Notes: generated from the letters alone by a model not told the origin. Shown: positions 2,391 to 43,118, counted from the stretch's first letter. The stretch is 53,017 bases of DNA from a virus (IMGVR_UViG_3300032116_000284:1-53017); one strand, 5' to 3'. Program-made: numbers and translations.

Positions 2391-3614
2391 TTATGCCTTG
2401 AGGTTGAATGACTTGTCGATGGACAGCGGAAACATTGTGGTTTGGTCTGGGAACTTCGGAAACCCAGTTGATGCAACCTTACCGAGACCGGATAACAAGT
2501 TCAACCTATTTGGGTGAACATCCATAATCAAGGCATCGTGAAGGACAAACAGTGGGATGATCTGCTCTGAGAAAGATGGCGGCAAATCTGACATGTACTC
2601 TATCAGATTTTTGAATCCCAGCATGGCTATATCAACGGCTGTGCTTTGGATATAGTGGTTCAGCAGTGTGTGTTGGTGTGTAGTCGTTATGCGTCTGCCA
2701 TAAAACGATGTTATCCAGCGCTGGTTTGACGGTTCAGATATCCATTCTGTCCTGAGTCTTGAGGTTATGCCATCAACGTCGAACATAACCTTCACGTTGT
2801 GGATGAGCAACTCTGCATAACCATGAAGCTCAACAGGTATGCCTTCCTTGATGGTATCCTTGCTGGCTCCATATAGCTGTGCCAACAACACTCCCTTGAT
2901 TACCTTCCGGGTTAGCGCTCCTGTCTCTAGCCCCATGTCCCTTGTAAGCTTATCTACCATCCACATGTATATGTCACTCTTATCTATCCCTATAATGGTA
3001 CCCTCCAACCCCTCTGCAACCCTCTCTGGTAATGTTCCACTGGCTAGAGAAATACCAGGGTGGTTGTTATAGGGCAACTGGAGTAGGGTTAGGGGTTCAA
3101 GGGCACGATAATCAAGAGAGACGATGTGTCCTCCATCCCACCTTGACTCCAGGATGTTTCTATAGCTTCTGGGTAGATGTAGGATGTTGGGACCGGCAAC
3201 AACCTTCAACCTTCCTGTCACTGTATCAAGTCTGCTATATTCAACAGGCATAGCATACCCGTTGTTGTTAGGCTGGAAGGACTGCACGACTCCTAGCTTG
3301 TCCTGAGATACGGCTTCATTCCAAGCGTCACTGTTTATCTTGGCCGGTTGTAGCGCATCAAACACAGACTCCGTGGGAAGATAAATGTCGTGGTAGTAGC
3401 TCAAGTCCAACCCCTGCAGAGCTTCGGCATGCTCTCTAGATAGCCTCTCAGTCTCTCTATACGCCTTATCCGGGCACACAACGTTCCATGGCACACGTTG
3501 GTGCGGCAGGGTTGGTGCAAGCCCCCTATAAGCCTTCAGGTAAGGTTCAGGGGCTAGGGGTGGAGGTTGAAGCAGATAAAGCTTCTCGATAATGGAAGTG
3601 CTGTGTTGTTTCAT
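2391..3614 (-). CDS. minimal family A DNA polymerase (polymerase domain only)
   Basis: TVTGRL, motif A SLDYRALE, motif B RKVIKGVLLAQLYG, SFYGRR, NHYIQSTAVDI, motif C LHDAL; no exonuclease domain seen; start chosen at MKQH (track start 3635). Confidence 0.8.
   Translation of the reverse strand: MKQHSTSIIEKLYLLQPPPLAPEPYLKAYRGLAPTLPHQRVPWNVVCPDKAYRETERLSREHAEALQGLDLSYYHDIYLPTESVFDALQPAKINSDAWNEAVSQDKLGVVQSFQPNNNGYAMPVEYSRLDTVTGRLKVVAGPNILHLPRSYRNILESRWDGGHIVSLDYRALEPLTLLQLPYNNHPGISLASGTLPERVAEGLEGTIIGIDKSDIYMWMVDKLTRDMGLETGALTRKVIKGVLLAQLYGASKDTIKEGIPVELHGYAELLIHNVKVMFDVDGITSRLRTEWISEPSNQRWITSFYGRRITTTHQHTLLNHYIQSTAVDIAMLGFKNLIEYMSDLPPSFSEQIIPLFVLHDALIMDVHPNRLNLLSGLGKVASTGFPKFPDQTTMFPLSIDKSFNLKA
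3020..3049 (-). repeat. dispersed 30-bp element, copy 1 (inside polA-like gene)
   Basis: reverse complement reads CTCTAGCC-AGTGGAACATTACCAGAGAGGG; 22-bp core identical to 20911-20932 and 41894-41915. Confidence 0.95.
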
Positions 3615-3657
3615 ATGGTACTGGTAAGGTACCATGCGAATAACTCTAGCTGCTGGA

Positions 3658-6600
3658 TTATCTTCTTGTTCGTCTTGGGGACGGGGCAGAGGTAGGAGTT
3701 GAAGGTGTTGTCGACGTTGACCCTAGGGCTTGGATGGTGGCTCTTGCGGTGTTGAGCTGGCCGATAAGGTTTCTGTACTGCCCAAAAGCATCATTTGCCG
3801 TGAGTTTCAGGGTTGTTTCGAACGTGCCGCCTTCGAACTTGTGGGTAAGACCGGTTACGTAGTAGATGTTGTCAGCCGTTGTGTTGGTGTTGAAGTCAAC
3901 GAACAGTTCTTGGGAGTATCTTACGAACGGGCATCCTAGAGTTGTGATAGAAAGCTGAACAGGATAGATGGACAGAGGCACGCCTCCTGGCTGTTCACCA
4001 TTTGCCAACACGGGGTCGCCATTCAAGCTTCTCTGCATGTTGATGGTTGACATCAACGGATCGCTGTTGCTTGACAGGTTTGCAGACTTGATTGTTGTTC
4101 CCATGCAACCGTAGATGATGTGCGGAACGAACTTCATCACCATCTCTTTCAGTTTCTTCGGTCCACCCTTGAGCCTGTACTGCGTGCTGCTGTTGGGAAG
4201 AGTTTCGATGATTCCATGGGACAGAGCGTGGTTGACCACACTAGTGTGAATCTGTCGCCAGTTGGCAAGCAAGTCACTGTCTGAAGGTGGGGCTTGAATT
4301 CCCGTTGGGTTTTCTTGCCTTCTGATGTTGTTGTTGTCAAGTACAGCTCTGCCTGCACCTTCGTCTCCTGGGAACGCCGAGAGTGTCGACAGAACGTTGT
4401 TGGTTGACAGAGTAAGCAACTCTCTCAACGTGCTGTTGGGAGAACAAGCCTTGTCATACACATGCAACTTTAGAATCGTCTTGGAAGGGTCATAAGCGTA
4501 TGGTACAGCTTCAATGTCAAAGGTGACTTGAGGCATGGTGAAGTCCGGAGACCTGCTTATGTTGTTTTCCGTCATGATGTTGGCCATGCGACGGTTGAAC
4601 TCATCTTGGGAACCGACAATCTCTAGTTCGGAACCTTCAACGTTCTTCTTGTAAAGGTCGTTGATTAGGTAAGCGGGATTCATCGGATCATCAATCATCT
4701 TGTTGGCAAGGAACGAGATGAACTCAGCAACGGACAAGTTGACGGCCCTGCTCGTGTTCTCTAGTCTCAGTCTTGAATACTCCCTTGCAAAGAAGTCCGT
4801 ATATACAGGGAACTGACTGATGTTGCACCTGCTCATCAACGACGCCTTGTTGTTGAAGTTGTAGAAGTATACCTGAACCTCTTCAAACTTAGGCTTGCCG
4901 CTTATGGTGTCCTTCACCTTGGCAAGAGGCTTGGCCACAAAACTCATAACGAGCGTACCAAGAGACAAAACACCTTCAGTGTTAGCAACAGTGCTGGCAA
5001 GTTGATCCCTGTCAGCCCTGGCAACCTGTGTGCCGGAGATTCTTACCGTTTTGTTCCTGAGTCTTTCCTTCGCTGCGGACTGTCTTAGGAATATGTCGTT
5101 GTCAAAGCTGTTGTTCGATGTTCCTTGAACGTTGATTCCTCGAAGAGTGTCTTGAATATCCCTGTTCACAGAACGACGAATAGAACTTACCGAGCCACCG
5201 GTTGTGGTTCTAGAGTTGCCTGTTCCTGGCCCTAGGAGCTCGTCCAGTCGCCTTCTGAGTTGGCTTGCAGCATTCCGTATAGGCTGAGCGTTGTTGCCTC
5301 TAGAACCTGCCCTGGCGGCCAAGGAGCGCCTTAGCTCTGCAAGGTCGGAGAACAACTCTTGAGACAGCACAAGATAGTTGGTTGCATCGCCTGCAGCTGC
5401 CAACATCTGATGGCCTCTTATCTCTTGGCGTTGGTTTCCTTGAGAGCCGTTTGCGCTAGGGCTTCCAAACACTGCCGAAGCAAGGTCGTTGATTTCTCTT
5501 GACAGCGTTTCAACCCTTGCAATCTGTGTGCGAAGCTCAGCTGTGCTCTCTCCTGTTATGGACAGTTCTGTCGTTTCAGCTACACCTCTGGTTACAAGGT
5601 TCAACGTGATGTTGACTTCGCCAACGTCGCCAAAAGAGAAGTTGCTGGTGACGATGCTATAATGTTCCTTGATGCGTGTAAGGTTCAGTAGGTCTGCATA
5701 TGGGTTACCGCTATCAAGAGCATCCGGATGACTCCAACCGTACTCCACTTCGATAAACGAAGAACCATATCTGTCTGGCTTCACGAAGTCAGCAAACTCA
5801 CCAAGTCTCGAACGGTCATGCAACACAAGTTCAAGGCGTGCTGTCTTCGTTGACATCAACCCAACAGTGCTCTTTACGTCAACATCGAAGCTCTTGATGC
5901 TGGCAAGGGGTCGTGATGGATCAATCACCGGCGCCAGATAGTTCGACTCGTTCTTGATAGCTTCACGGTTGATGAGCGTTTGAGGAGTCTTGAACAGCTC
6001 CAGTCCAACAACGCTATAGTTTTGGAACTGCTGTTCTGTGTTGCCAAACAAGCTAGCTGTAACTTGACTTGCCAAGTTCATAGCCGCCAGCGCCTTGTTG
6101 TTTGGATCGACTGTGGCAGCACCCTCCAAGAACTTCTGAATGGTTATAGCTCCAAGCTTCCCATCTTGAAGGACTTGCCTGCTACTATAGAGCTTGATGT
6201 CCAGAACAGGTGTTGCTCTCTGAAGTTCAAGAGTTGGGAATGCGTTGAAAAACACGGACAACAGCTCGGCGTTCTTCTCTCCTGGAATCAGCATGGGATG
6301 TTCCATCCTGAAGGCCACGATTTTCTTCGCTATGTCGAATACGGCTTGAGGTTGCGAACCAAGCTGTCCTCGCTCTTCGGGTTTGAACCCTATCTGCCCC
6401 AAGTCATCGTTCAGCACGTTACCTGAAGATCCTTGCCTCCCGGTTGCTATCGTGTTGCTGCTGTCATAGTGGGCTTTCACACAGCGAGACAGCTTGCGAA
6501 GTTTTGATGCGTCACCGCCAGCTTCTGCCACTCTTGTTGCTAGTTGCTCAAGAATTGAACGCTGGTTGTCGTTGAAGGCTTTCCTTCCACCCTCACCGGT

Positions 6601-6885
6601 GTCGAGAAACAGCTGGAACACTTCGTTGGTCACGGCATCTACATCTCGAATGTTCAGCCGCTCGTCTACAGTCCTGTTGTTTACATCGCCAGGAACAAGC
6701 GTTTCTGAAGTACCTCTGTTGTCGAACTCTCTAGAACGTTGTTCACCGACAGCCTGCGAGAACGCCAGAGCTTGACTCACGGTACCTTTGTCCAGGAAAC
6801 CGAAGTACCTTGCAAGGTCTTTTCTAAGAAGCGCTAGTTTTTGGCTTCTTATCTCTCTCGTCAGCCCTAGGTCTAGTTTCAGCAT
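3658..6885 (-). CDS. baseplate hub protein (P2 gpD / T4 gp27-like)
   Basis: SIKSFDVDV...TARLELVLHD...IEVEYGWS N-terminal hub motifs; C-terminal LSITTLGCP...FVDF...YYVTGLTHKFEGGTFETTLKL; follows the LysM gene in the tail module. Confidence 0.7.
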   Translation of the reverse strand: MLKLDLGLTREIRSQKLALLRKDLARYFGFLDKGTVSQALAFSQAVGEQRSREFDNRGTSETLVPGDVNNRTVDERLNIRDVDAVTNEVFQLFLDTGEGGRKAFNDNQRSILEQLATRVAEAGGDASKLRKLSRCVKAHYDSSNTIATGRQGSSGNVLNDDLGQIGFKPEERGQLGSQPQAVFDIAKKIVAFRMEHPMLIPGEKNAELLSVFFNAFPTLELQRATPVLDIKLYSSRQVLQDGKLGAITIQKFLEGAATVDPNNKALAAMNLASQVTASLFGNTEQQFQNYSVVGLELFKTPQTLINREAIKNESNYLAPVIDPSRPLASIKSFDVDVKSTVGLMSTKTARLELVLHDRSRLGEFADFVKPDRYGSSFIEVEYGWSHPDALDSGNPYADLLNLTRIKEHYSIVTSNFSFGDVGEVNITLNLVTRGVAETTELSITGESTAELRTQIARVETLSREINDLASAVFGSPSANGSQGNQRQEIRGHQMLAAAGDATNYLVLSQELFSDLAELRRSLAARAGSRGNNAQPIRNAASQLRRRLDELLGPGTGNSRTTTGGSVSSIRRSVNRDIQDTLRGINVQGTSNNSFDNDIFLRQSAAKERLRNKTVRISGTQVARADRDQLASTVANTEGVLSLGTLVMSFVAKPLAKVKDTISGKPKFEEVQVYFYNFNNKASLMSRCNISQFPVYTDFFAREYSRLRLENTSRAVNLSVAEFISFLANKMIDDPMNPAYLINDLYKKNVEGSELEIVGSQDEFNRRMANIMTENNISRSPDFTMPQVTFDIEAVPYAYDPSKTILKLHVYDKACSPNSTLRELLTLSTNNVLSTLSAFPGDEGAGRAVLDNNNIRRQENPTGIQAPPSDSDLLANWRQIHTSVVNHALSHGIIETLPNSSTQYRLKGGPKKLKEMVMKFVPHIIYGCMGTTIKSANLSSNSDPLMSTINMQRSLNGDPVLANGEQPGGVPLSIYPVQLSITTLGCPFVRYSQELFVDFNTNTTADNIYYVTGLTHKFEGGTFETTLKLTANDAFGQYRNLIGQLNTARATIQALGSTSTTPSTPTSAPSPRRTRR

Positions 6886-6917
6886 GATGTCTTATAGCTA
6901 TAGAGGGGACTTTTCTA

Positions 6918-7211
6918 CTAGCCCAGGTATCTAAGAGCTTGTTCTAGGTCAGGAATCACGATTCTTGTGTTCACTGGGCACTGCGGAGCCCAGCCTATCG
7001 ATGAGGCTGCAGCTATAAGCCAGTAGTACCTTCCATCACCGTAATACTGCCCCGCCAACACGTCAAGTCGAATGACTTCCTTGAGGTATATCACCGTTGT
7101 CCGGATAGCTCCCGATGCAACAGCTGCTCGTATCTTAGAAACGGACTCGGATGTGCCATATTGCACACCGAAATTCACTCTTGGCGTTGTTGAGTATCTG
7201 CTAACGGCCAT
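6918..7211 (-). CDS. LysM-like baseplate/tail protein (P2 gpX / T4 gp53-like)
   Basis: MAVSRY...RLDVLAGQYYGDGRYYWLIAAAS...RIVIP. Confidence 0.85.
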   Translation of the reverse strand: MAVSRYSTTPRVNFGVQYGTSESVSKIRAAVASGAIRTTVIYLKEVIRLDVLAGQYYGDGRYYWLIAAASSIGWAPQCPVNTRIVIPDLEQALRYLG

Positions 7212-7214
7212 ATA

Positions 7215-10200
7215 TCAGCCTTTCCTGTTCAGCGTTGGGTTTGACAGCGGGTTGAATCTGTTTATGTTTCCTTGAGCAGACACAGACTGAGCGTCGTTGG
7301 CTGTTGGCGGTGTTGTTGTGTTGCCGTTGTTCATGTAGTAGTTCGAGTAAGGGCCAACAGGCCACACAGGAGCCGTCATGATGCCATTAGCGTCCAATCC
7401 TGGTGTAATGTCATGGATTACGGACATTCCAAGGTTTACCGTTACAAACTTCGGAGCTCTGGACTTGGTGCTTCCATCTGTACTCCAGCTGCCCTTAGCT
7501 TCTGAGTAATCCACCTTGAAACTGGTAATGACACCAGCAAGACCCTGTCCGCCAGAAGACTTGAAAGCTTTCAACACCGGGTTCTCTGTTTCAGAAAAGA
7601 ACTGTTGGCCAGTGAGAGATTCAAGCCCTGCTGTGCTTGTGTTTCTCGCTGTGGACACCGAACCACTTGTTGTTGGTTGGCCGGTCACGACTTGTTGTTC
7701 GTCTCTTACCGTTCTGTTCTGAGAACTGTCAATGCGCTTTTGAAGTTCTCTTGCCGTCCTTTGCTGGTCAAGAGCTCTTGCAAACACGTTGCTTGTGTTC
7801 AAGGGCAACTGGAGAGTTGGTGATGTTCCTGCCTGTGCGTTGATTGGCACGGTTGGGTAGCCACCAATGTCGTTGTTCCCAAGAAACGAGCTGCCACCAA
7901 CTCTGATGTCTCGGATGTAGTTCTTTAGTTGCAAGACAACCTTCGAGGTCTGTGAATCTGTTCGAACATATTCGGCAACGATTCTGCTCTCTTGTGTTAT
8001 GAGTTTGGTAAACGGTGTGTTGCTTGCGCTATAGCCACGAAGATACTGAGAAAGAACCTCTGGCTTCAACACAAGCTTGTCTCCGGGCTGGAACAGTTGA
8101 TCCGGTGTAACCACAGGAGACAACCCAACAGCTGTTGCTGCCCTTGCCATAATGGTCAAGTTCTGACTGTTCAGAATGGAAACAGGCCCATACATTAGTG
8201 CGCTGTTTGCACTGGTGCTGTCTGTTGTTGTTGTTGCGCCTGTTGGCACAGAGCCATCCCTGCTCGAAGTTCTACCGTCAGCTGTTGGAGCCACTCTGTT
8301 TCCTTGCACGTTGAAAGTGCTAAGCGTTGTTGCTCCAAACAGTCTTGCAACTGCCATCTTGCTGAAGTTGGTTTTGAACAAGTCCCCGAGTCTTAGTCGG
8401 ACAACAGGAGAAGCTCCTGGAATCTGAGAGAACGGCTGTATGAACCTCACGTTGTCTACGTTTACTTCTCTGCCCTGCGTCCACTGTGGATATATCATGG
8501 TCACTAGCTTGTTGAGCTTGTACCACATGACGGAGTGATCGTCTTCGTTGGTTGCAACCATCTTGAAGGAAACGGTCACCGTTCTTGTTGTGCCTCTGTG
8601 TGTCTGTACCTTATCTTGCCTGCCATAGCCTTCTTGTGCTGTGTATTCCACAGAGAAGTCTTCCCCTACGTCTTCAAGGAAAGCGTGGAACTGAACGATT
8701 TCGTTGGTTCGCAAGTCGTGGATATAGAATGGCATGTAGTCCGACTCTAGGGACTGTTCATACTTCGCAACCATATCGGCTGAGATTCTACCAGAACGAA
8801 CAGCTTGGTTCCTGTCGCCAGCTGTCCTGAAGTTTGGCTGTTCGTTTCCATCGGTGTTTATCACGTCCGGATAACCTTCAACAAGAGACACACCGGCTTC
8901 TCTCAAGTTCCTGTTGGTTCCTGCGCCTGGGTTGTACAGAGAACCAAGAGGAAGAGACAGCATGCTCGTTGTTGACATACCCCACGCCAACTTCCCGTTC
9001 TTGCTCAGTCTGGACTTGGCGATGTAGTTTCTTCGCACATCTGGCAGGCTGTCAATAAAGGACACGGTGCTTCTGCCATCTGTGTTATAGTCTGGATTAC
9101 CGTTATCCGCTGCGTCTTGAACGATGTCCTGGTTCTGGAGAACTCTGTCCCCCAGGTTCATCAGGACGTTTATGAATGACACGAGCTTCAATCTCTTGAG
9201 TCTCTCTAGCAGGGCGCTTGCACCTGCCACAGAAAACCCCTCAGAGGGTATAGCGGCCACATCTGAGAGCAAACCTATGCCACTTCGGAGTATCTCACGG
9301 AGCAGGGTACTGATTCTGCCACTTTCGGTCAATATCTTCGAACTTGCAGTGGCCAGTTGCTGCACAGCCGCCGTGTTGCCTGTGGCGTTGAAGTTTCCAA
9401 GCAGTCGGAAACCAAAAAACTCTTCAAGACCAGCAAACAGACAGTCTCCTCTGTTGTGTTGCACTGTGTCAAACAGAGTCGTGACACCGGATACGTCTCT
9501 CAAGAAGTCCAGTCCAGAAGTAATCTTTCCTTTTGGATAGACCGTAGAAGACTTCAAAACGGAAGTGCCAAGCAGGTCTGCCTTCTCTTGGGTTGACAGC
9601 GACGCATACCCAACAATGGTACCATCACCGGAACCCTGCTGAACCAGAAACCCAACGCTCTCAAGGACAAGGGTGAAGGCAACGACCAACGCTACAGCCA
9701 CAGCGACTTGTCCGGTAGGAACAAGTGTGTTGAACTGGGAGTATGGACTGTAGAACGACCCATATGTCTCCAGACTGTCAGTGTTGTCGATGAAGGTTGT
9801 TCTTGAGCCCTTGTCGATTCCGTAGACTTTCTTGAGTTCTCTTGCCCCAGAGAATCTGCCGAGAGATATCTTCTTGCCAAGCCTTGTTGGTGAAGGTACC
9901 GCCGCTCTTGCTTCTGCTTCAACTGTGTTGTCTTTTGTAACAACGAAGTCGAAGTCCGCTCCACCCTGTGAAGCATCGAACAACGAGTTCAATGCAAGAA
10001 TCTGCATGTCTTCAACAGTTAGTCGTTTTGCTGCAACTGTCTGTCCAGAGATTGTAGGTTGCCCAACATAACTGGTCTTAGCATAGGCACCAAGTTGGTT
10101 GTAGAAGACAGAACCAAGCTCCAGCTTCGTGTCAGGCTGAGTACCATCCCCAGTTGGATTCAAAAACTTATGCTCTTCGTTGAAACCGGTTGTTTCAAGC

Positions 10201-10739
10201 AGCTGTTGGTCGATGAACTTTCCGTGCTTGCCCGAAGATAGATAAGCTTTCAGCGACTTTGTTTTGCCGTTGTCAACCGGAGCTGAAGACCCAAGAACAT
10301 TCTTCTTCGCTCCAAAGTCGGCTTCTGTGTTGCTAAGTCCGACGGCTTCAAATGCTTGTGGGTTCCACATCGTAGCAGGACTGACAAACGGAGTTGGGTC
10401 AATCTTGCTTACGTTTAGTTGCTCGTTCTGGGAGACGTACCTTGGCTGGTTAGCGTCGTCACCAGAAGCAGGACGAATGTTGAACGTTGGTTCCAGAGGA
10501 ATAGCGTTCTGTCCATCAACCGTCATCTGTGTAACGTGAGCTACAAGCTTCCTGAGAACAGGACGTGCCACATCTGTAGAGCCATCAAGAGTAGGAGCGA
10601 CGGCTGGGCCGTCTGTGTTGGGACGCTCGCTACTTTCCACAGCACTGTCATCAGTACGCTGCTGATAGTAGATCGTCAGCTTGCGTGTGGAACCGGTTGA
10701 AGGGTCAGCCGGTGCATTCTGTGGAATAAATCTCGACAT
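7215..10739 (-). CDS. large baseplate / tail-tube initiator-like structural protein
   Basis: PFYIHDLRT...FHAFLEDVGEDFSVEY...GYGRQDKV...TRTVTVSF...VRLRLGDLF and later GVITSFKVDY...PKFVTVNL; located between tape measure and LysM genes. Confidence 0.6.
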   Translation of the reverse strand: MSRFIPQNAPADPSTGSTRKLTIYYQQRTDDSAVESSERPNTDGPAVAPTLDGSTDVARPVLRKLVAHVTQMTVDGQNAIPLEPTFNIRPASGDDANQPRYVSQNEQLNVSKIDPTPFVSPATMWNPQAFEAVGLSNTEADFGAKKNVLGSSAPVDNGKTKSLKAYLSSGKHGKFIDQQLLETTGFNEEHKFLNPTGDGTQPDTKLELGSVFYNQLGAYAKTSYVGQPTISGQTVAAKRLTVEDMQILALNSLFDASQGGADFDFVVTKDNTVEAEARAAVPSPTRLGKKISLGRFSGARELKKVYGIDKGSRTTFIDNTDSLETYGSFYSPYSQFNTLVPTGQVAVAVALVVAFTLVLESVGFLVQQGSGDGTIVGYASLSTQEKADLLGTSVLKSSTVYPKGKITSGLDFLRDVSGVTTLFDTVQHNRGDCLFAGLEEFFGFRLLGNFNATGNTAAVQQLATASSKILTESGRISTLLREILRSGIGLLSDVAAIPSEGFSVAGASALLERLKRLKLVSFINVLMNLGDRVLQNQDIVQDAADNGNPDYNTDGRSTVSFIDSLPDVRRNYIAKSRLSKNGKLAWGMSTTSMLSLPLGSLYNPGAGTNRNLREAGVSLVEGYPDVINTDGNEQPNFRTAGDRNQAVRSGRISADMVAKYEQSLESDYMPFYIHDLRTNEIVQFHAFLEDVGEDFSVEYTAQEGYGRQDKVQTHRGTTRTVTVSFKMVATNEDDHSVMWYKLNKLVTMIYPQWTQGREVNVDNVRFIQPFSQIPGASPVVRLRLGDLFKTNFSKMAVARLFGATTLSTFNVQGNRVAPTADGRTSSRDGSVPTGATTTTDSTSANSALMYGPVSILNSQNLTIMARAATAVGLSPVVTPDQLFQPGDKLVLKPEVLSQYLRGYSASNTPFTKLITQESRIVAEYVRTDSQTSKVVLQLKNYIRDIRVGGSSFLGNNDIGGYPTVPINAQAGTSPTLQLPLNTSNVFARALDQQRTARELQKRIDSSQNRTVRDEQQVVTGQPTTSGSVSTARNTSTAGLESLTGQQFFSETENPVLKAFKSSGGQGLAGVITSFKVDYSEAKGSWSTDGSTKSRAPKFVTVNLGMSVIHDITPGLDANGIMTAPVWPVGPYSNYYMNNGNTTTPPTANDAQSVSAQGNINRFNPLSNPTLNRKG

Positions 10740-10751
10740 TTGTGTCCATAA

Positions 10752-10940
10752 CTACTCCACGTTGTCTTTTGTTGGAACAGCCGTAACGCTAGCTAGCGCT
10801 GTCGGCAGACTCTTCGTCATGGCGGCAACCATTTCCACAATGGTCTTCCTGGCACTGTCTCTGTCAGCTTCAGGCAGAGAATCTAGCAAGTGTTTCACTA
10901 GTGGATGTTCTAGAACTTGGGTGTCTATGGGCTTCGTCAT
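10752..10940 (-). CDS. small hypothetical protein in tail module
   Basis: 62-aa ORF tightly packed downstream of the tape measure gene. Confidence 0.5.
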   Translation of the reverse strand: MTKPIDTQVLEHPLVKHLLDSLPEADRDSARKTIVEMVAAMTKSLPTALASVTAVPTKDNVE

Positions 10941-10941
10941 G

Positions 10942-13900
10942 TCACTGGCCTCTCATTGTTCCAACGCTGTTTCGTGTGGAAGGGTTGAAGGACTCAGGTC
11001 TAAGGGCTTCTTCTCTTGTTGGCTTGTCCTTTGCGAACCTATACAGGGCCTTGTTGAACGTCCCAGCTTCGAGAGTGACGTTTACTTCCACGTTCACGTT
11101 TGCTGCAGCTTGTTCGATTCTTGCAATCTTCTTCGCTCCCAACTTGTCGCCCATACGCTCAAGCGTCAAGTCGATGGATGGGATGTTTCCAGCCCTTGCA
11201 AGGTCTCTGGAGAAGTCTTGGTACGCTTGGATCATGTTGAGGAAGTTGGCTCCAAGAGTGCCTTGAAGACTTTCTGTGATAGCTGTAAGCATTCTTGGAA
11301 GGCTTCTGAGTCCGTTGTCTCCTTCGCCACTTAGTTCTCTGATTTCCTTGGCAACGTCAACAAGGCTCTTGATGGCTCCGAACACTCCCTTGACCTTGTT
11401 GATTTGCGCAATGCCTGGAGCTCTGATTTCTCCGATGGCATCGAGAACACCTTGAAGCATGTCTCCATGGCCATCAACGTTTCCGATTCTTCTCTTGGCG
11501 AAGAAGAACGTCATGACTTCCATAACCGGCAAGAACACTTGAGACCATGTGTTCAACATGCCACCGGCACCTAGGCCACCTCGGTCGACTCTCAACGAAC
11601 CAACGATGCTTGTGATGGAGCTTACAAGCTCAAACACGCCCTTGAGGGCAGCGACCTTGGTGTTCAGACCAGGAACAACTGGAATCTCCATCACTTGATT
11701 GATGAATCTAGGCAAGTACGTAGAGAACATATCTCCTAGGCTGTCAGTGATAGACGTAATCATGGAACGAGCAAACCTACCCATGGCTTCAAGCCCAGGA
11801 ATGGTCCTTACGTTTCTTGTTGTCACTTCGAGCGTTGAACTCACTGCCGATATCAAGGGTGCAGTCATCGAAGCAAACGACTTGATAAGTTCTGTCACGA
11901 TGGACAGAGCTTTTATACGCTGTGGATCTGTTGGTAGTCCTGCTACGAGAGTAGCTACGGAACCAACGATACCAGAACGACCGTCTTGCCCAACAATCAG
12001 GTTCTTTAGGGAGCTTGACAGTCGCTGAATGAAGGTCTGTGCTTGGTGAAGTCTTTCGTCGCTCAAGCTGGCAGCTGATCTGCTGGATAGCAGTTGGTTG
12101 AAGCTGTCCATGGCTCCACCAACGCCTTGGTTGCTCATGACAGCAGCGAGAGAGTTCAACGTTGAAGACAAGACAGTCCCTATAGACTCAAGGACCGGCC
12201 CAACAGCCTTGAGAGCGTTGATGTTTCGTACGCCGTTGACAAACTCCAGGACATGTCCAAGCATGGCCTTAGTTGCACCGCTTATGGCTGGAATGAGCTG
12301 CGTAATCATCCCTTCCATGGCCTTGAACTTGGCCACGGCTCCTAGTCCTGATGCAATCAAGCTCAGTGGTCCACCGATGAAGCTGGCAGAGATTTCAAAC
12401 TGGCCAAGGAACTCTCCAACAGCCTTGATCATCGATGCAAGTCCAGTTGAAAGAATACCAAACACCTCTGCCGATGCTTTTAGCTGTGTTGGGGCAATAT
12501 CCATGTTCGATGCCATAGATTCAACACGCTTCAACAGAGCTGTGACAACGCCTGTTTTCGGGTCAGCAAGCATCGATATCACACCCGTCAAACCTTTGGT
12601 TGCTTTCTCGACAACCATGGCGTTTGTCATGTTGACATCGGCGAACAGTCCGCCCGTTACATGCTTGATCAAGTCAACGATAGGAACGATGAGGGAAGCA
12701 AGGCCAGCTGTGATGGTTGAGAACACACCGGCTTTCTCTTTCAACACGCCTACGTCACCCGATATCGAGTTGACAACCGGAACAATCTGCAAAACAGCGA
12801 CCTTGATTCCAGTGATCACTTCCGTCAGTGATTCCAATGGGCTCTTAGCACCAAACAGCTTCGAAGCCACTGTGCCTATAGCAGCAAACGGAGCACTGAA
12901 GGCTAGAGCAGACATAGCCAACGTCATTTGGATTATCAGCTGTGTGAAAGTCATCAGAATTCCGCCAACTTCCTTGGCATAGGCTGCATTCACACCGGCA
13001 CGGTTCATTCCTGTGACGAAGTCGGCGATGGTTACAGTAGCAAGTTTCGTCAAGCCAACGAGAACAACGCCAACAGCAACCATTCCTAGGGCTATAGCAG
13101 CCGCTGCAGTGCCTCCGCTTGAGCTAAGGGCAAGACCAACACCCGCCAACACGAGCATCGATGCTGACACTCCTAGCATCAACAAAACCATGTTGTTCAT
13201 TACACCCATGAAGGTGTTGACGGCTTCCTTGCTTACGTTCTGGAACATCTTAGCCCCAAGGAACACTATGCCGCCAACAGCCAACATGATGGCGCTGATA
13301 GCCAGAAGTCCTATTCCTAGGCCCTTAGCGATGGCTCCAAGGCCCTTCGAAGAATCCCCAAGCCTTTCAACAGCTTGGAAGAAACCTGTCTTGACAAGGC
13401 CAACAAACATAATGGTGACTGCACCAAGAACGCCCGTTATCATGGCCAGGGACTCTGGTTTCACTTGAAGGCTCTGCGCAAGGGCAGCGAGCAAGATGAC
13501 TGAGCCAATAACAGCGCTAGCAGCAGCTGTGAACATCACAACAGAACCAGCTAGCTTACGCATACCCTTGGCACTGTTCTTGATCTGGTCAGCTACTCTC
13601 TCTGGAGAGCTCGCACCCTTCGAAGAAGCTGTGTCTCCAACAGTTGTTCCTGCCTTCGCTGCTCCACCTCTGATCGATGTCATCAACCTTGGCATGTCGC
13701 CAAGGATACCGGCCACAACGGCTCTGAACACAGCCATCACAGTAGCAGGTCCAAACCAGAACACAATGGCACCCATGATTATCTTGTGCATGTGTGGCAT
13801 CACAAACTTGTTGAACATCTCTTTCGCTATGTCAACGAGAGCTGAACCAACGTCCTTCAACACCGGTCCAAGCTCTTTCTTCAAGTGCATGAAACCGGAC

Positions 13901-15861: not shown

Positions 15862-15910
15862 GGTAGATGGTTATGCTCCTGCACCCATAACTATCAACAG
15901 CGTATTTATC

Positions 15911-16297
15911 ATGTCAAATCCAGAAGAACCATCAACCGAAGAAGACATCATGACGGAACACAAGGCCGAGGAGCTGTTGAAAGAGTATCTCAAGCTTAGC
16001 CCTATTCCAAGTGCCGTTATGATGCCTTTCAAGAACTACAAGATGACAACGTTGGGGAAGTTGTTCTTTTCCAGCCTTGTGGTAAGCATGATGACCGGGC
16101 AAAAGTCTCCGTTCAAGGTCTCTGGAGACAAGAAGAAGATTGACATTCTTGTTCGAGCGGTCCAGAGTTCGAAACGGTTTCAGGATGAAGTGAAACGTCC
16201 TGGTGCCACTGTTGATTCAGTAATCAGAGCCATGGATCTGAAGAACGTTGACTCGAAAAACTTCGAACACGTGTTCGGAGTGCCATTTCCTCTGTAG
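15911..16297 (+). CDS. hypothetical protein divergent from tape measure gene
   Basis: ATG immediately after TATTTAT (15903-15909); ends FEHVFGVPFPL. Confidence 0.6.
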   Translation: MSNPEEPSTEEDIMTEHKAEELLKEYLKLSPIPSAVMMPFKNYKMTTLGKLFFSSLVVSMMTGQKSPFKVSGDKKKIDILVRAVQSSKRFQDEVKRPGATVDSVIRAMDLKNVDSKNFEHVFGVPFPL

Positions 16298-16300
16298 TCT

Positions 16301-16891: not shown

Positions 16892-16924
16892 ACAACATAG
16901 TTACATGGTAGAAACACAAGTTCT

Positions 16925-17640: not shown

Positions 17641-17647
17641 TGGCTCT

Positions 17648-29270: not shown

Positions 29271-32138
29271 ATGTCACTAGTAGACAACAAAGGGTACATC
29301 ATCGATCCATACAGAAACTTCATTCACACGAGTCGATACGCTCGCTGGCTGGATGACAAGGGCCGTAGGGAGACGTGGGCTGAGACGGTAGCCCGTTATG
29401 TTGGGTTCATGCGCAAGCACATGACCACAAACTACGGCTACGCCAAGGATGACCCCAACTTCGACTTGGTTGAGAAGGCCATTCTTGAGCATGAAATCAT
29501 GCCCTCAATGAGAGCGTTGATGGCTGCTGGCCCTGCTATGGAAGCAGATAACATCTGCGCCTATAACTGTCTCGGGAGAGAAACTGAGTTCATTACTCAA
29601 GAAGGAGTGCGCCGATTCTCGGATTTCAAGAGCGGAGACAAGGTTACTGTCCTCACTCACACGGGAGCATGGAAGCCTGCGACCGTGCGCAGTTATGGCG
29701 AACAACGGCTGTACAACATCACAATTTCCCGTGGGCGCTCTGCACATACGGTCAGAGCCACAAAGAATCATCAGTGGATTTTGGCCGATGGGTCACGAAC
29801 AACAAACCTTCAGCCGAAGGACCAGTTGGCCAGACCACCACGAATTGTGGCCGATTGGGATTACTACAACAGTTCGCCAACGGAACGTATCTATTGGGCG
29901 CTGGGGTTCGTGTATGGCGACGGTACTTTGACCAAAAACAAGAGTGGCGAGTACACACACTCGATGGTACGCCTATGTGGTGAAAACAAAATGAGGTTCC
30001 TGGATAGATTCCAAGAGCTCGGCTATTCTGTGAGTTCACCTGCCTCGTGGGGTGGGGATGCGGTTGCCTATACTGGCCACTACCTAAAGGCGCTGCCAAC
30101 AATTGAAGAGGACGGTTTCGAAAAGGTTGTCGCCTTTGTGCGTGGATACCTCGATGCAGATGGCAACAAGAACCTAAACGGGGAATGGCCAAGCCCATTC
30201 AGCGGGATTCAAGCATCCAAGGAAACATCAATAGAGTTCATTCGCAAGATGTTCCCTGCCGTTGGAGCTTACATCACTCAGGAAACGGACCTTACTGGGG
30301 AAGAAACCAACTACGGCATTCGCCCGAAAACATCCACGTTTGGACTCGTTCTAGGTTTTGGCGACTCCAAGAACTCTACATATAGCGTGCAGAATATTCA
30401 AGAATCCACAGTCGAGACTGTGTGGTGTCTTGAAGTAGAAGACGACCACTCATTTGTTCTTCCAAATGGCATTGTTACAGGAAACTGCTCGTTTATCGCT
30501 GTTGACTCGCTCCGTGCCTTCGACGAAGCCATGTACATTCTGATGAATGGAACAGGGGTAGGGTTCTCGGTTGAGCAAGAGCACGTCAAGGAACTGCCTG
30601 TTATCGCTGACGAGTTCGAACAGACAGAAACCACGATTGTTGTTGAGGACAGCAAGATGGGCTGGGCCAAGGCATACAAGGAACTCATATCCTTGCTTGT
30701 GAACGGTCAGATTCCGAACTGGGACACCAGGAAGGTCAGACCAGCTGGAGCAAGACTGAAGACGTTCGGTGGCAGAGCTTCTGGCCCTGAACCACTGAAG
30801 GAACTGTTCAGATTCACCACGCAAGTGTTCAAGAACGCCAAAGGAAGACGACTGAAGTCTATTGAAGCGCATGACATCATGTGCAAAATTGGTGAAGTCG
30901 TTGTTGTTGGTGGTGTGCGCCGAAGCGCCCTTATCTCGTTGTCTAACCTTGATGACTTCGAGATGGCGAAGGCGAAGAGTGGGCAGTGGTGGGAATCACA
31001 GCCACAGCGTGCTCTTGCGAACAACTCTGCTGTGTATGACTCGAAACCAAATACAGCACAGTTCCTTCGTGAGTGGAGAAACCTTTATGAGTCCAAGTCA
31101 GGAGAGCGAGGAATCTACAACGCTGAAAGCGTAAGGAAGCACATTCAGAAGGCAGGCAGGAGAGATGCGTCGAAGGTTCGTGGCACCAATCCTTGTGCAG
31201 AGATTCTGCTGCGTTCACTTCAGTTCTGCAACTTGACAGAGATTGTGATTCGTGCTGAAGACACAGAGGAAGACTTGTTGAGAAAGGTTGAGCTTGCCAC
31301 CATTCTTGGCACATGGCAGTCAACCCTTACCAACTTCAAGTACATCCGTAAGGCATGGAAGAACAACTGCGAAGAAGAGAGACTGTTGGGAGTGAGCTTG
31401 ACCGGAATATTCGGCAACAAACTTACTTCAACGAACGGGCCAGAGCTGGCAGCGCTGCTCAACAGGATGAGAGAGAGAGCCATCGAAGTCAACCAGAAGG
31501 AAGCCGAAGACCTTGGAATCCAAGCGTCGACAGCCATCACCTGCGTCAAGCCATCAGGCACGGTGTCACAGCTTGTTGGTGTGTCTAGCGGCATTCACCC
31601 ATGGCATTCGGAATACTACCTTCGTTCTGTGAGAGCGGACAACAAAGACCCATTGACAACATTCTTGAAGGCTTCAGATGTGCCAAGCGAACCAGAAGCC
31701 TTGAAGCCGGAATCGACAACAGTATTCTCGTTCCCTATCAAGGCGCCAGAGGGCGCTATCGTCAACTCTCATCTCACAGCCGTTCAACACCTTGAGCTAT
31801 GGAAGACATACAGAGAGTGTTGGACAGAACACAACCCGTCGGTAACGATATCTGTTCGTGAAGATGAGTGGATGGATGTTGGTGCGTGGGTATACAAGAA
31901 CTTCGACCACATTGGTGGAGTATCCTTCCTTCCAGCAACCGACCACATCTATCGTCAAGCTCCGTATCAAGAGATAACCAAGGAACAGTACGAGGAAGCA
32001 GTGTCGAAGATGCCTGCCGAAATCTCTTGGAACGACCTGAGCATGTTCGAAACGGAAGACAGCACCTCTGGCACACAAGAACTGGCTTGCAGCGCAGGTG
32101 TGTGCGAAATCGTTGACATCACTTCAACAGCGAAGTGA
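29271..32138 (+). CDS. nrdJ: class II (adenosylcobalamin-dependent) ribonucleotide reductase, intein-containing
   Basis: RRETW, MPSMRAL, AYN|CSF split by intein, GTGVGFS, GGVRRSA, TNPCAEI, TCVKPSGT, C-terminal CSAGVC. Confidence 0.92.
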   Translation: MSLVDNKGYIIDPYRNFIHTSRYARWLDDKGRRETWAETVARYVGFMRKHMTTNYGYAKDDPNFDLVEKAILEHEIMPSMRALMAAGPAMEADNICAYNCLGRETEFITQEGVRRFSDFKSGDKVTVLTHTGAWKPATVRSYGEQRLYNITISRGRSAHTVRATKNHQWILADGSRTTNLQPKDQLARPPRIVADWDYYNSSPTERIYWALGFVYGDGTLTKNKSGEYTHSMVRLCGENKMRFLDRFQELGYSVSSPASWGGDAVAYTGHYLKALPTIEEDGFEKVVAFVRGYLDADGNKNLNGEWPSPFSGIQASKETSIEFIRKMFPAVGAYITQETDLTGEETNYGIRPKTSTFGLVLGFGDSKNSTYSVQNIQESTVETVWCLEVEDDHSFVLPNGIVTGNCSFIAVDSLRAFDEAMYILMNGTGVGFSVEQEHVKELPVIADEFEQTETTIVVEDSKMGWAKAYKELISLLVNGQIPNWDTRKVRPAGARLKTFGGRASGPEPLKELFRFTTQVFKNAKGRRLKSIEAHDIMCKIGEVVVVGGVRRSALISLSNLDDFEMAKAKSGQWWESQPQRALANNSAVYDSKPNTAQFLREWRNLYESKSGERGIYNAESVRKHIQKAGRRDASKVRGTNPCAEILLRSLQFCNLTEIVIRAEDTEEDLLRKVELATILGTWQSTLTNFKYIRKAWKNNCEEERLLGVSLTGIFGNKLTSTNGPELAALLNRMRERAIEVNQKEAEDLGIQASTAITCVKPSGTVSQLVGVSSGIHPWHSEYYLRSVRADNKDPLTTFLKASDVPSEPEALKPESTTVFSFPIKAPEGAIVNSHLTAVQHLELWKTYRECWTEHNPSVTISVREDEWMDVGAWVYKNFDHIGGVSFLPATDHIYRQAPYQEITKEQYEEAVSKMPAEISWNDLSMFETEDSTSGTQELACSAGVCEIVDITSTAK
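29568..30485 (+). mobile_element. intein (306 aa) with LAGLIDADG homing endonuclease domain
   Basis: begins CLGRETEFIT, block B TKNHQW, LAGLIDADG-like WALGFVYGDG and FVRGYLDADG, ends VWCLEVEDDHSFVLPNGIVTGN followed by Cys. Confidence 0.92.
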
Positions 32139-40383: not shown

Positions 40384-40448
40384 GCTGGGTTGATAACAAC
40401 CCTTTACTGCAAACAACCAAGACTCACCGTGATATCTAGAGAACGCTG

Positions 40449-43118
40449 ATGACGACCACTTCCCTTCTATACAGCTCCAAACAGCTCTTCAGCTCGAAGA
40501 AGCTCAACAAGAAAAAGAAGAGTGAGAAGCAGGCTGGTGACGAGCCTAGGGCCAAACACAACAAGCAGTTGGTGTTCAGTCATCATGAGTGGAGAGACTC
40601 GACGGTTGAAATAATCTCAAAGGTCATCCTTGAGAACAGGCTGCCTGTCATCGAGTTGTTCAGTGTAGGGACGGCTGTTGATGATGGCGAGAGGTATTGC
40701 AGCTGTGGATACTTGAACTGTCCAAAGCCAGGGAAGCACCCATCAAACTGGCGAAACTGGACCAGGGCCTTGATTCCTAGTGCTGAGTATCTTGCAAAGA
40801 TGCTTCAGAAGAAGAACCGAAACTATGCCATCGTTGCTGGCAGGCGCTCACCGAAGAACGGTAAGTGTCTTATCGTTGTTGACGTTGACCAGTTCGACCA
40901 TCCATACCTCAACTCGCTGAAGGACAGCAACACGTTCTACTACAGAACGGGTGGAGGAGGTTATCACTTCTGGTTCTGGACAACAGAATATCTCTCCAAA
41001 AACTCCATATCACTTCTGGCTAAGTCTCTTGACACAAGAGGAGCAAACGGCTATGCCATTATTCCTCCAAGCGAACACTTGAAGGGTTCTTACCACGAAC
41101 TAGTCGGGAACACCATCCAGGACTTACCAGAATGGCTTGCAGTCGAGTTGCGTGAGAAGATCAAGGCCAAGGCTGCTGAGAGACGTGAAGCCGCTGGTAA
41201 GGCTAATAGACACACTACAGCGCTCGTGCAAAACTTGATTGACTCACTCGGGCAAGAACCTACAGAGACGAAGAAGACTTTCAGTCAAGGGTTCTGGGCT
41301 ACAGCTACTGTTGTGCAAATAAGAAGAGCGTTGGCACTGCCGGGAGAGCTTGTTCCTATCGGCACAAGGAACAACGTCATGTTCAAGTTGTTGTCGGCCA
41401 AGAGGGTTCTTGGTGCTTCCGAGACAGAGTTGTGCGCTGAAGCACAAAAGGTGTTGAGCAGGTTTGAGAACCCGATTGCATTCTCCGAAGAGATTCCTGG
41501 CATAGTTTCCAGCGTGTTGAAGTACAAGTCTTACGACACGTCCTACGACAAGGTAAACGTCAACTACATCTTGTGGCTTATGAAGAACACGAAGTTCTCG
41601 TTCACAAGGGAGACTCCCGAAGAGAGACTCACACGGCTTGAGGAAGCCGACAGGGCATTCTTCGCTGGCCTTGAGGTTGTAGAGAACCCAGGCGAGGATG
41701 AAGAACCAGGAGTAAGCTTGACTCAGATATCCGACATGAGGGCCGAATACCTTCAACGAGAACTGGGATGCAAGGGGTCCGTCTATAAGCCTCAACATCT
41801 AGCACGGAAACTTGTGGCCTTGGGATATAAGCGGTTTAGGACCGCTAAGAGAAATTATTGGAACATTCGTTTTACCCAGTGTATACTCAAGCCAGTGGAA
41901 CATTACCAGAGAGGGTCTTCCTCTGCCTGCCCTATGCCACCACAAGAGCGTATAAAGGACACAGTGAAGGAACATAAACAGAGGATGGCTGTCATTGTTC
42001 AAGAGAGACAGAAGCCCGAGATAGAGTTGGGCCGTGTGTACACCTCAGATGACACAGGGAAAGAGTATGCTCTATATGAACCCAGGCTTGTTGTTCCTAC
42101 CAGTGATGGTAAGCAGTACGTGTCGAACTTCCAGTTGCTTGAAGATGCAACCGGCACAAGGGACTACATCTGGATAGCACCCAAGCAGCTGTTTCTCGTT
42201 CTGGAAGCACAGAAGAACACGATGCTTGGAATGGGCGAGGACATGCTCTGGCTGCGTGTTATCGCTGGCTCAAAAGAGAACGTTTCCCCGATATGGAAAA
42301 ACGTTGACGTTGCTCCCGAAGGAACTGTTGCTTGGATTCTTGCAGACCCGGCACACCTTGTTCCTGTTGGGCCACCGACACAGAAGCGTCAACAGAGCAG
42401 GAAAGAACACAAGACCATGAACATGACGAACAAAGCTGAAGGGAACAAGAGCGAGGTTGTTGCTCTGCATTTCTCGGACTTGCATTCAAGGTTGCACTTG
42501 TTGAACGAGCACCTTCAGTCATTGAAGGACATGAAGTTCGACTGTTGGATCAACACGGGAGACTTCTTCCCAAACCTGCCACATGGAGGTTTGGTTGAGA
42601 ACGAGCGGAGATACCAAGAGGGTTGGTTCCTGCAAGTCAAGGAATACTTGTTCGAGCTGCTTGACGGCAAGCCTGTGATAACGGTTGACGGGAACCACGA
42701 CTTCATTTCGCTGGCTGACATGCTGGTCAAGCATGGGTATCCAGGAGAGGTCTACAAGATAGAACAAGGGAAGACGTTGGAGTTCATGGGTTTGAAGTTC
42801 AAGGGATTCCAGCACATTCCATGGTGCGGTGGATTCTGGAACCATGAGGTTGATGTTTCCTCCATGGAAAAGATCGTAAGACAGACGTTCGATGGTGCGG
42901 AGGATGTAGATGTGCTGCTTACGCACACTCCTCCACAGGACATCCTAGCTTGTCAGTGGGGCGTTCCAGCGCTGAGAGACAAGCTGCTGTTCACGACCCA
43001 TGGGTTTAGGTACCACATGTTTGGTCATGTGCATGAAAGCCCAGGACAACACGAACAAAACTACATCAAGTTCTTCAACTCGGCTGGTATTGTTCAGCGT
43101 GTTGTGATGACGAAGTAA
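40449..43118 (+). CDS. Prim-Pol (bifunctional primase-polymerase) + unknown domain + calcineurin-like metallophosphoesterase in one ORF
   Basis: CSCG...PGKHP, NYAI, VVDVD, RTGGGGYHFWF, LDTRGANGYAIIPPS, GTRN (PriCT-like); C-terminal SDLH, GDFF, GNHD, THTPP, GHVHE. Confidence 0.8.
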   Translation: MTTTSLLYSSKQLFSSKKLNKKKKSEKQAGDEPRAKHNKQLVFSHHEWRDSTVEIISKVILENRLPVIELFSVGTAVDDGERYCSCGYLNCPKPGKHPSNWRNWTRALIPSAEYLAKMLQKKNRNYAIVAGRRSPKNGKCLIVVDVDQFDHPYLNSLKDSNTFYYRTGGGGYHFWFWTTEYLSKNSISLLAKSLDTRGANGYAIIPPSEHLKGSYHELVGNTIQDLPEWLAVELREKIKAKAAERREAAGKANRHTTALVQNLIDSLGQEPTETKKTFSQGFWATATVVQIRRALALPGELVPIGTRNNVMFKLLSAKRVLGASETELCAEAQKVLSRFENPIAFSEEIPGIVSSVLKYKSYDTSYDKVNVNYILWLMKNTKFSFTRETPEERLTRLEEADRAFFAGLEVVENPGEDEEPGVSLTQISDMRAEYLQRELGCKGSVYKPQHLARKLVALGYKRFRTAKRNYWNIRFTQCILKPVEHYQRGSSSACPMPPQERIKDTVKEHKQRMAVIVQERQKPEIELGRVYTSDDTGKEYALYEPRLVVPTSDGKQYVSNFQLLEDATGTRDYIWIAPKQLFLVLEAQKNTMLGMGEDMLWLRVIAGSKENVSPIWKNVDVAPEGTVAWILADPAHLVPVGPPTQKRQQSRKEHKTMNMTNKAEGNKSEVVALHFSDLHSRLHLLNEHLQSLKDMKFDCWINTGDFFPNLPHGGLVENERRYQEGWFLQVKEYLFELLDGKPVITVDGNHDFISLADMLVKHGYPGEVYKIEQGKTLEFMGLKFKGFQHIPWCGGFWNHEVDVSSMEKIVRQTFDGAEDVDVLLTHTPPQDILACQWGVPALRDKLLFTTHGFRYHMFGHVHESPGQHEQNYIKFFNSAGIVQRVVMTK
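41886..41915 (+). repeat. dispersed 30-bp element, copy 3 (inside Prim-Pol ORF linker)
   Basis: CTCAAGCC-AGTGGAACATTACCAGAGAGGG. Confidence 0.95.

Follow-up and report, generated by a model that had tools for sequence, protein, structure and literature searches.

What role might be played by a short DNA word that recurs, unchanged, at intervals of about 20 kb along a fragment of a giant phage genome, in two cases out of three inside a gene? The fragment in question is the IMG/VR record IMGVR_UViG_3300032116_000284, here called the window, by which is meant the whole stretch of 53,017 nucleotides (nt) that was analysed; it is the entire record, and as CheckV puts its completeness at 14%, it represents part of an uncultured phage with a genome of roughly 370 kb. 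The word is the 22-mer AGTGGAACATTACCAGAGAGGG, which a scan of the window found exactly at 3020-3041 (minus strand; copy 1), 20911-20932 (plus strand; copy 2) and 41894-41915 (plus strand; copy 3), successive copies being separated by 17.9 and 21.0 kb. No extra copy appeared in the window at up to 3 mismatches and 100 dinucleotide shuffles gave no match at all, confirming the three exact copies that an earlier, sequence-only reading had reported.

That reading took the copies to belong to a genome-wide cis-acting system (such as origins of replication or priming, segregation or nucleoid-organising sites, or packaging or recombination signals), or else to be a tiny in-frame mobile element. The idea of a genome-wide system is supported by the analysis described here, in which the element was found in 20 records, in both orientations and several reading frames, and without a match in Rfam. 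To judge from these comparisons the element is a signal at the level of DNA, and not of protein or RNA; it very probably belongs to a functional array of sites that are read by a protein; and the identification of the sites as origins of replication or priming, argued below, is a tentative one.

The conserved unit and its distribution

The extent of the conserved sequence was narrowed down by comparing the 22-mers of close relatives and then the copies present in distant relatives. What emerges is a unit of the form W-GTGGARSAYWACCA with a tract of some 10-18 purines after it on the same strand; the invariant part is GTGGA-N5-ACCA (GTGGARSAYWACCA), with A or T just before it. In the window, the 14-mer of copy 1 (GTGGAACATTACCA) lies at 3027-3040, with its purine tract at 3020-3026, while those of copies 2 and 3 lie at 20912-20925 and 41895-41908. 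A logo built from 56 distinct copies has purines at 96-98% at positions +14 and +17 to +20, with purine richness persisting to about +32, and upstream of the core only the W at -1 is conserved. The site is thus strongly asymmetric, such symmetry as it has being limited to TGG..CCA. A slight rise in AT content is also seen between +40 and +59 (62% vs about 55%). When a weight matrix was run over ten records, 42 matches scored at least 22 bits and 43 at least 14 bits (0-2 in reversed controls), implying that the sites are all-or-none, without a tail of weaker copies.

Beyond this common unit there are extensions that are specific to particular genomes. In the window, the 8-mers CTCTAGCC, CTCTAGCG and CTCAAGCC stand directly 5' of copies 1, 2 and 3, GAGGGGTTGG follows copies 1 and 2, and TATGCC(A)CCACAAGAG comes after the second and third copies (at 20961-20975 and 41933-41948); both these satellite motifs and the preceding 8-mers agree with the original description. 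The extended module around copy 1 (2977-3060, minus strand) is made up of the core with 19 nt on its upstream side (CCCTGGTATTTCTCTAGCC) and, after it, GAGGGGTTGG...TTATAGGG, and is common to copies in three other records (G001, G003 and G004); that around copy 2 (20896-20975, plus strand) includes GAGGGGTTGGG and TATGCCCCACAAGAG (the latter at 20961-20975). More generally, the subclade of the window (G000, G001, G003 and G004) shares the 19 nt upstream together with a GGGGTTGG...TTATAG module, and the copies in G010 share an extension of their own, GAAGAGGGATCCAAGAG. No terminal inverted repeats, target duplications or second conserved end were found.

As to RNA, a search of the window against Rfam gave no match at the gathering threshold, and one of nine loci gave none at E<=1; ARAGORN found no tRNA or tmRNA in the window. 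Folding of the 56 copies gave a mean z of only -0.5, and the three copies in the window each fold differently, from which it appears that the small AGTG-GAA-CATT hairpin proposed at the outset does not correspond to any conserved fold.

A scan of related phage contigs for further copies found 81 occurrences of the 14-mer in 20 related giant-phage IMG/VR records totalling 1.99 Mb, or about one per 25 kb, against none for reversed-pattern controls. Fifteen of these are in the window and seven close relatives; the four large records G010 (241 kb), G011 (163 kb), G012 (320 kb, 81% complete) and G013 (260 kb) hold 15, 7, 7 and 12 respectively; and the remaining 25 come from 8 of 16 further records that were searched. 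Seven other giant-phage fragments carry exact or near-exact 22-mers. Because some of the records are strains of one phage (G024 and G025, for instance, have identical spacing), the 81 copies are not all independent; the records are, besides, fragments, and related ones are not independent of one another. Among 13 records in which the corresponding loop of a PolA-like polymerase (see below) is short or different, amounting to 1.41 Mb, there were no exact copies, and allowing up to one mismatch in five of the 13 gave 2 matches as compared with 1 in the control. Two small-phage records, G006 and G008, each had one degenerate 21-mer match, but no 22-mer within 3 mismatches, and were set aside as being at chance level.

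Sequencing runs were also compared, three of them RNA (X15, X16 and X20) and one presumed to be RNA (X17). In X15 and X16, which are wastewater "metatranscriptome" runs, there is a strain about 94-95% identical to the window over 2500-22400, in contigs of up to 50 kb; apparently the RNA library contains phage DNA. The loose ends at 3020, 3058 and 20943 show that the strain has more copies of the element, breakage of contigs at the element being as expected for a repeat. The long contigs say nothing about starts, strand or expression level, and give support neither way.

Sites within genes

The clearest view of how the word sits within coding sequence comes from the gene that carries copy 1. 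This encodes a PolA-like polymerase of 414 residues (2391-3635, minus strand; Pfam DNA_pol_A, E 4.7e-4; PHROG DNA polymerase, E 9.6e-13), and the copy falls in the variable loop that separates motif A (LDYxSLEP) from the DIY motif. Of 685 homologues found at E<=0.001, 80 loci were fetched; the loop has about 8 residues in the distant homologues and 12-60 in the nearer ones, and that of the window, with its extended module, is longer than in homologues. The 14-mer is present in 24 of 65 distinct loop sequences. Eleven of these copies are in the sense orientation, ten reading S-G-T-L/Q-P (the GxxP frame) and one V-E-H-N, while 13 are antisense, twelve of them reading G-Y/S/N-V/L/P-P-L and one lying in another frame. 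The peptide that appears "conserved" in this otherwise hypervariable loop has a simple explanation, in that TGG-N7-CCA encodes G-x-x-P whichever way round it is read. In the sense G-T-x-P frame the common ATAACC variant would introduce a stop (TAA), and at this place the sense copies in the polymerase carry TTA or CAA instead.

Identical cores were found also in non-homologous contexts. Within the window, copy 1 reads SGTLPER in the polymerase and copy 3 reads PVEHYQRG, in frame, in a Prim-Pol gene, both translations being as first given; that two different peptides are encoded had been the ground for placing the conservation at the level of nucleic acid, and this view gains from the occurrence of the element in either orientation and several frames and from the lack of any Rfam match. 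Alignment of orthologues, which bears on whether the element was inserted into these genes, finds equal-length replacement and no insertion. For instance, in a GroEL-like gene VVEHNQEE (G013) and LVEDNQKS (G010) stand gaplessly opposite LSELSGKQ in the site-free orthologue of the window, and in a gene for a 530-residue protein GYVPLTF stands opposite GVGSIAR of G001. As the alignments indicate, therefore, sites within genes replace segments of equal length and are not insertions.

Positions of sites also persist over considerable divergence. For 8 of the 12 sites in G013 there is a site in G010 at the orthologous gene, even though protein identity between the two is only about 35-70%; copy 2 belongs to such a syntenic set, beside an M48-like gene, together with sites of G007, G010 and G013, and the copy in the polymerase belongs to another. 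The core has stayed invariant while the proteins surrounding it have diverged to 30-45% identity. There are positional differences as well: the window lacks the site in the GroEL-like gene, and the window has its Prim-Pol site downstream of the gene, where G002 and G012 have theirs upstream. Between them, equal-length replacement and syntenic positions count against the suggestion of a tiny in-frame mobile element.

What the sites may do

Three properties of the array bear most directly on its possible function. One is spacing. Neighbouring copies lie at distances of 3-52 kb, with no tandem pairs, and in the four large records the median of the 37 spacings is 19.5 kb and the coefficients of variation are 0.33-0.59, random placement giving about 0.9. 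For even spacing the combined P is 0.0002, becoming 0.0026 if a 3-kb exclusion around each site is allowed for and 0.025 if this is made 5 kb. Eight other records, taken separately, have 14.3 kb as the smallest of 17 spacings (P<1/20000), a result that survives dropping two possibly redundant records. Since spacing is regular in many genomes, the interval of "about 20 kb" noticed in the window can be regarded as a general property, the median across related giant-phage records being very close to it.

The second property is the relation of the sites to gene orientation, for which the gene calls were our own (longest open reading frame, ORF, plus codon score) and not those of a trained gene finder. 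Of 42 copies, 18 are sense to both flanking genes, 12 antisense to both, 6 lie at divergent junctions, none at convergent ones, and 6 are ambiguous; the downstream gene is sense in 26 cases and antisense in 13. About ten copies fall 7-30 nt before a start codon, and in these the purine tract doubles as a ribosome-binding site. Taken over 41 sites, there is a minus-to-plus switch in gene strand of 0.36-0.39, as against 0 +/- 0.09 at random or intergenic positions, a value reached in none of 3000 simulations, and in five whole records genes tend to point away from the nearest site (0.125 vs 0.003 +/- 0.038). GC skew, once gene strand has been fitted, retains a side-of-site term of +0.0114 (P 0.007) that is positive in all five genomes. 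The check on orientation and GC skew proposed at the start thus finds sites in either orientation, with skew and gene strand both diverging from them. The orientations of the sites themselves come in runs in G010 (+++++ --- ++ -----; 4 runs vs about 8.5 expected) and are unclustered in G013.

The third property is an association with one particular protein. Prim-Pol (PF09250) is present in all four of the large site-bearing records, as well as in the window and G002, and in none of three large site-free ones (G014, G019 and G020, 43-75% complete); it was found in none of 25 smaller fragments, whether site-bearing or site-free, and these are hence uninformative. Three of 6 genomes have a site no more than 150 nt from the Prim-Pol gene, as compared with an expectation of 0.48 (P about 0.008). 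A model of residues 1-481 (pLDDT 70) most resembles the primases of pRN1 and RSF1010 (RepB'), with E values of 2e-5 and 9e-4, and for the C-terminal 86 residues (pLDDT 86), which are conserved, a winged helix is predicted, the PDB entry that matches it best being 1ka8, the origin-binding domain of phage P4 (probability 0.95, TM 0.59, E 0.07). Other candidates give less to go on: sigma-70-like genes occur in site-bearing and site-free records alike, and the distributions of the DnaG zinc ribbon and of Toprim_2 are not clean, so that no conclusion was drawn from them. The element does occur about 350 nt from the start of a 340-residue Toprim_2 gene (G010, 220304-221329; G013, 179341-180300), the product of which is possibly a DnaG-like primase.

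Even spacing, divergence, retention within genes and the link to Prim-Pol together suggest multiple origins of replication or priming; among the functions listed in the sequence-only reading, origins fit best, on account of the divergence in gene orientation and GC skew and of the Prim-Pol link. A more specific version, on which we would place slightly less weight again, is that a genome has some 12-20 evenly spaced, sequence-defined origins, each consisting of the 14-bp word and a polypurine start tract, read by Prim-Pol through its winged helix. In this uncultured clade of phages of roughly 250-400 kb, there is one site for every 20-25 kb or so in an even array; where intergenic room is wanting, the site is written into tolerant protein loops. 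A phage protein, for which the best candidate is Prim-Pol with its C-terminal winged-helix domain, would bind the core, and synthesis would start at or beside the purine tract, giving either a primer or a stable hybrid of purine RNA with DNA, the product then being extended by the PolA-like polymerase. The comparisons themselves establish how the element is built and distributed, how it is spaced, that its positions are conserved, that neither reading frame nor orientation constrains it, and that gene orientation and GC skew diverge where it occurs; protein binding, Prim-Pol as the binder and the start of replication at the sites are all things that we infer.

Several observations weigh against this account. 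To our knowledge, 15-20 origins in one genome exceeds anything known in phages. The winged-helix match, at E 0.07, is not significant, with winged-helix repressors ranking next, and the co-occurrence with Prim-Pol reflects a single clade, so that it is confounded by ancestry. The skew term is small and depends on crude gene calls, reaching P<0.05 by itself only in G013 (one of five genomes), and AT skew has no side-of-site effect that is consistent among the five. There is no marked unwinding element, only the AT patch described above, and within the window only copy 2 looks origin-like. The excess of sense over antisense downstream genes, and the use of the purine tract for ribosome binding, hint at some tie to expression, while the RNA-library runs that contain the phage offer contigs with even cover and are silent on starts.

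Known systems offer partial parallels. Phage T4 has origins oriA, C, E, F and G, of which oriF and oriG combine a promoter with an unwinding element and are primed through an R-loop. According to a review of T4 replication (PMC3016281), there are at least five origins in its 169 kb, several of them at points of transcriptional divergence or skew shift and some in genes, and the origins share no sequence motif. The likeness lies in having several sites per genome, at similar density, some in genes and at divergence and skew shifts, and in asymmetric units that prime one strand (for T4, again from PMC3016281); the difference is that the sites of the array all carry an invariant 14-mer and purine tract, number about 12-20 per genome (by extrapolation) and are evenly spaced. 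A nearer parallel for the putative reader is the Rep protein of ColE2, an AEP primase which binds its origin and primes for Pol I, a family A polymerase (PMC4538821). AEP primases of this kind (ColE2 Rep, RSF1010 RepB' with ssiA/ssiB, pRN1 ORF904 and the P4 alpha protein) read a short, specific, asymmetric site and make a primer; the window's Prim-Pol has a predicted fold like that of pRN1 and RepB' and a C-terminal part modelled as resembling the P4 domain, and a PolA-like polymerase is present. However, in the plasmid and P4 replicons the sites number one or two, next to the primase gene, with no array over hundreds of kb, the site sequences are unrelated, and RepB' reads hairpinned single strands whereas no conserved hairpin is found in the array sites. 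A different sort of likeness, that of a DNA word imposed on coding sequence at tolerant positions and in both orientations, exists with the DUS/USS, Chi and KOPS words, and agrees with the replacement of equal lengths seen in protein loops. Those are cellular words of 8-12 bp, unevenly spaced and occurring hundreds to thousands of times, while the word of the array is viral, evenly spaced and present in few copies.

The alternatives to origins may be ranked, in decreasing order of likelihood, as transcription signals, genome organisers, nicking or recombination sites, a selfish repeat and an RNA, the last two being weakly supported. That the sites are transcription signals seems unlikely to us, but not strongly so. 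They might be a class of promoter, used by a modified host polymerase or an undetected phage one, or else operator or activator sites of a global regulator at the heads of transcription units, and the 6 divergent junctions with no convergent ones, the strand switch across sites, the predominance of sense downstream genes, the purine tract doubling as the next gene's ribosome-binding site in about ten copies, and the fact that these phages encode sigma-70-like factors would all suit such a role. The layout, too, recalls a T7 promoter, with some 15 specific base pairs and a purine-rich initial transcript. Promoters of the T7 group are 23 bp long, conserved, read by a single-subunit polymerase and spaced one per 2-3 kb; like them the sites have about 22 near-invariant base pairs, number a dozen or more per genome, have a purine-rich end, sometimes lie in coding sequence and vary together genome by genome, but they are not co-oriented with genes. 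Twelve of the 42 are wholly antisense in co-directional runs, 13 of the 39 that can be scored face an antisense downstream gene, and many lie in the middle of genes in either orientation, as in the PolA loop; about one site per 24 kb is also far too few for some 400 genes, and no -35/-10 pair is conserved at a fixed distance. A T7-like RNA polymerase (PF00940) was found in none of nine records 11-81% complete (the control genomes being silent too), a beta-like subunit likewise in none of nine although the control gave 14 of 14, and the site-free relatives have sigma factors as well. Less likely again is that the sites are anchors by which the genome is folded, condensed, positioned or segregated, as with matS/MatP, parS/ParB or the arrays of KorB operators, a role that would account for even spacing, orientation independent of genes, tolerance of sites within genes, the all-or-none character of high-information sites and the keeping of positions between genomes. 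The asymmetric P1 C1 operators (17-mers), the KorB operators of IncP, matS, parS and Noc sites are all scattered, highly specific and in some cases within genes, and share with the array an action at the DNA level irrespective of orientation; but P1 and KorB sites mostly overlap promoters, and the sites of ParB, MatP and Noc are palindromes, unlike an asymmetric site with a polypurine tail. We know of no such array that has been reported as evenly spaced or as having a polypurine tail. ParB_N was found in none of eight large records although 10 of 14 controls were positive, and divergence of gene orientation and GC skew would not be predicted from an organising role alone.

The remaining three alternatives are improbable to differing degrees. 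The sites might be where an enzyme for nicking, recombination or packaging acts, much as fixed single-strand interruptions occur in T5-like and phiKMV-like phages. They are highly specific, few per genome and tens of kb apart, a spacing of the same order of magnitude as that of T5 nicks, and an asymmetric site would suit a strand-specific cut; but the sites occur on both strands, in runs, whereas T5 nicks are on one strand, no nickase was identified, and the contigs of the records do not end at sites, making this improbable. Marginally more so is a selfish miniature mobile element or gene-conversion repeat with no function for the phage. Flanks are indeed homogenised within genomes (the 19-nt block and GGGGTTGG module in the subclade of the window, GAAGAGGGATCCAAGAG in G010), orientation is mixed, some sites have been gained or lost between genomes, and the module lengthens the window's PolA loop, yet the element lacks terminal inverted repeats and target duplications, replaces equal lengths within genes, has 8 of 12 positions shared between genomes at about 55% protein identity, is evenly spaced, is associated with points of divergence, and keeps an invariant core amid proteins at 30-45% identity. 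Most improbable of all is a structured or regulatory RNA, be it a small RNA, leader, ribozyme or solitary CRISPR-like repeat: although each window copy has some local pairing, and the extended modules of the window's subclade run for about 100-150 nt before the next gene, the Rfam, tRNA and tmRNA searches and the folding of the 56 copies gave the negative results already described, the upstream side is not conserved, one third of copies are antisense to local genes, and copies 3-52 kb apart form no arrays of the CRISPR kind. Two narrower candidates were ruled out, namely a promoter for an ECF sigma factor or sigma-54, as no second box is conserved at a fixed distance, and a Type I restriction site, as the word is enriched rather than avoided.

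Surroundings of the sites, and wider meaning

The neighbourhoods of the three window copies differ considerably. The product of the polymerase gene that holds copy 1 has about 400 residues, comprising palm and fingers only, and the gene follows an ORF of 1075 codons (3658-6885, minus strand) that has no Pfam or PHROG match; the pair is syntenic in G005. The polymerase (P0001) had no match among 50,697 GenBank phage records, a PDB sequence search with it gave no matches, and a single-protein search of viral contigs gave 14 pattern matches but no relatives; its relatives came instead from an alignment-based search, which yielded hundreds of stand-alone PolA-like homologues of about 400 residues, none of them among GenBank phages. 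Downstream of the polymerase, at 11-2381 (minus strand), are encoded an HD-domain protein, a T4 gp32-like single-strand-binding protein and an S-adenosylmethionine lyase-like protein, which is possibly anti-restriction.

Copy 2 is intergenic and antisense to both of its neighbours. It lies 16 nt from the start codon of a gene on the opposite strand for a protein of 354 residues (19830-20894, minus strand; family not assigned), and points into the 3' end of a NUDIX hydrolase gene (20983-21495, minus strand; Pfam E 2.4e-18); codon-usage score and Pfam together place both genes on the minus strand, and hence copy 2 points against both. It coincides with the minimum of cumulative GC skew in the window, whereas copies 1 and 3 are unremarkable in this respect. 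Within the NUDIX gene, 76 nt at 21100-21175 match the adenine glycosylase gene of Achromobacter phage Motura at 80% identity, and the region 20000-22000 has no other match to GenBank phages at the DNA level.

Copy 3 is in a fused ORF of 889 codons (40449-43118, plus strand), in which a Prim-Pol, PriCT-like and winged-helix part (residues 1-477) is followed by the element, a unique region and a Metallophos domain (residues 671-884). The copy forms the linker immediately after the Prim-Pol core and winged helix, homology ending at about residues 475-479, and 3' of it are a unique stretch of 190 residues and then the metallophosphoesterase domain. The fusion is free of stops, with its junction exactly at the element, and has in-frame ATGs at codons 496 and 513; the satellite TATGCCACCACAAGAG that follows copy 3 (41933-41948, plus strand) contains, as read from the sequence, an ATG (41934) in frame with the ORF. 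In G010, G011 and G013 Prim-Pol and Metallophos are separate genes tens of kb apart.

Elsewhere in the window, an ORF of 955 codons for a class II-like ribonucleotide reductase (29271-32138, plus strand) has a match to an intein-splicing domain at residues 144-404 (E 5e-6, below the Pfam cut-off), and the gene is probably interrupted by an intein. Long ORFs overlap on opposite strands at 22314-23651 (minus) and 22389-23681 (plus), and again at 24051-25421 (minus) and 24090-25415 (plus), in what is the GC-richest stretch of the window (0.55-0.56); over 22314-25421 Pfam backs a DUF2201 metallopeptidase/VWA gene on the minus strand and an AAA ATPase on the plus strand. The helicase of the window has at most 35% identity to that of a Microcystis phage.

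The motif strings were absent from the phage literature searched, in which supplementary files were not covered, the only 3 matches being papers on a human phosphatase; word searches of the same scope gave no description of such an array. The replication and organisation of very large phage genomes are largely unknown, and the clade concerned here is uncultured, but the sequence rule allows the array to be mapped in any related contig, and the proposal is open to test with one oligonucleotide and one candidate protein. Within the polymerase loop, the DNA word overrides protein coding to the extent that the same 14 bases may appear as SGTLP, as VEHN or, reversed, as GYVPL. Should the sites prove to be organising or regulatory ones they would be of a new kind for phages, while if they are origins the phage would be the first to combine origins in large number with even spacing and a defining consensus, and Prim-Pol and its site would make up a natural sequence-specific pair that might find use as a priming tool. 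If true, the reading as origins would mean that a bacterial virus has a multi-origin strategy specified by a consensus, and carries the origin word within its own genes, that for its DNA polymerase included.

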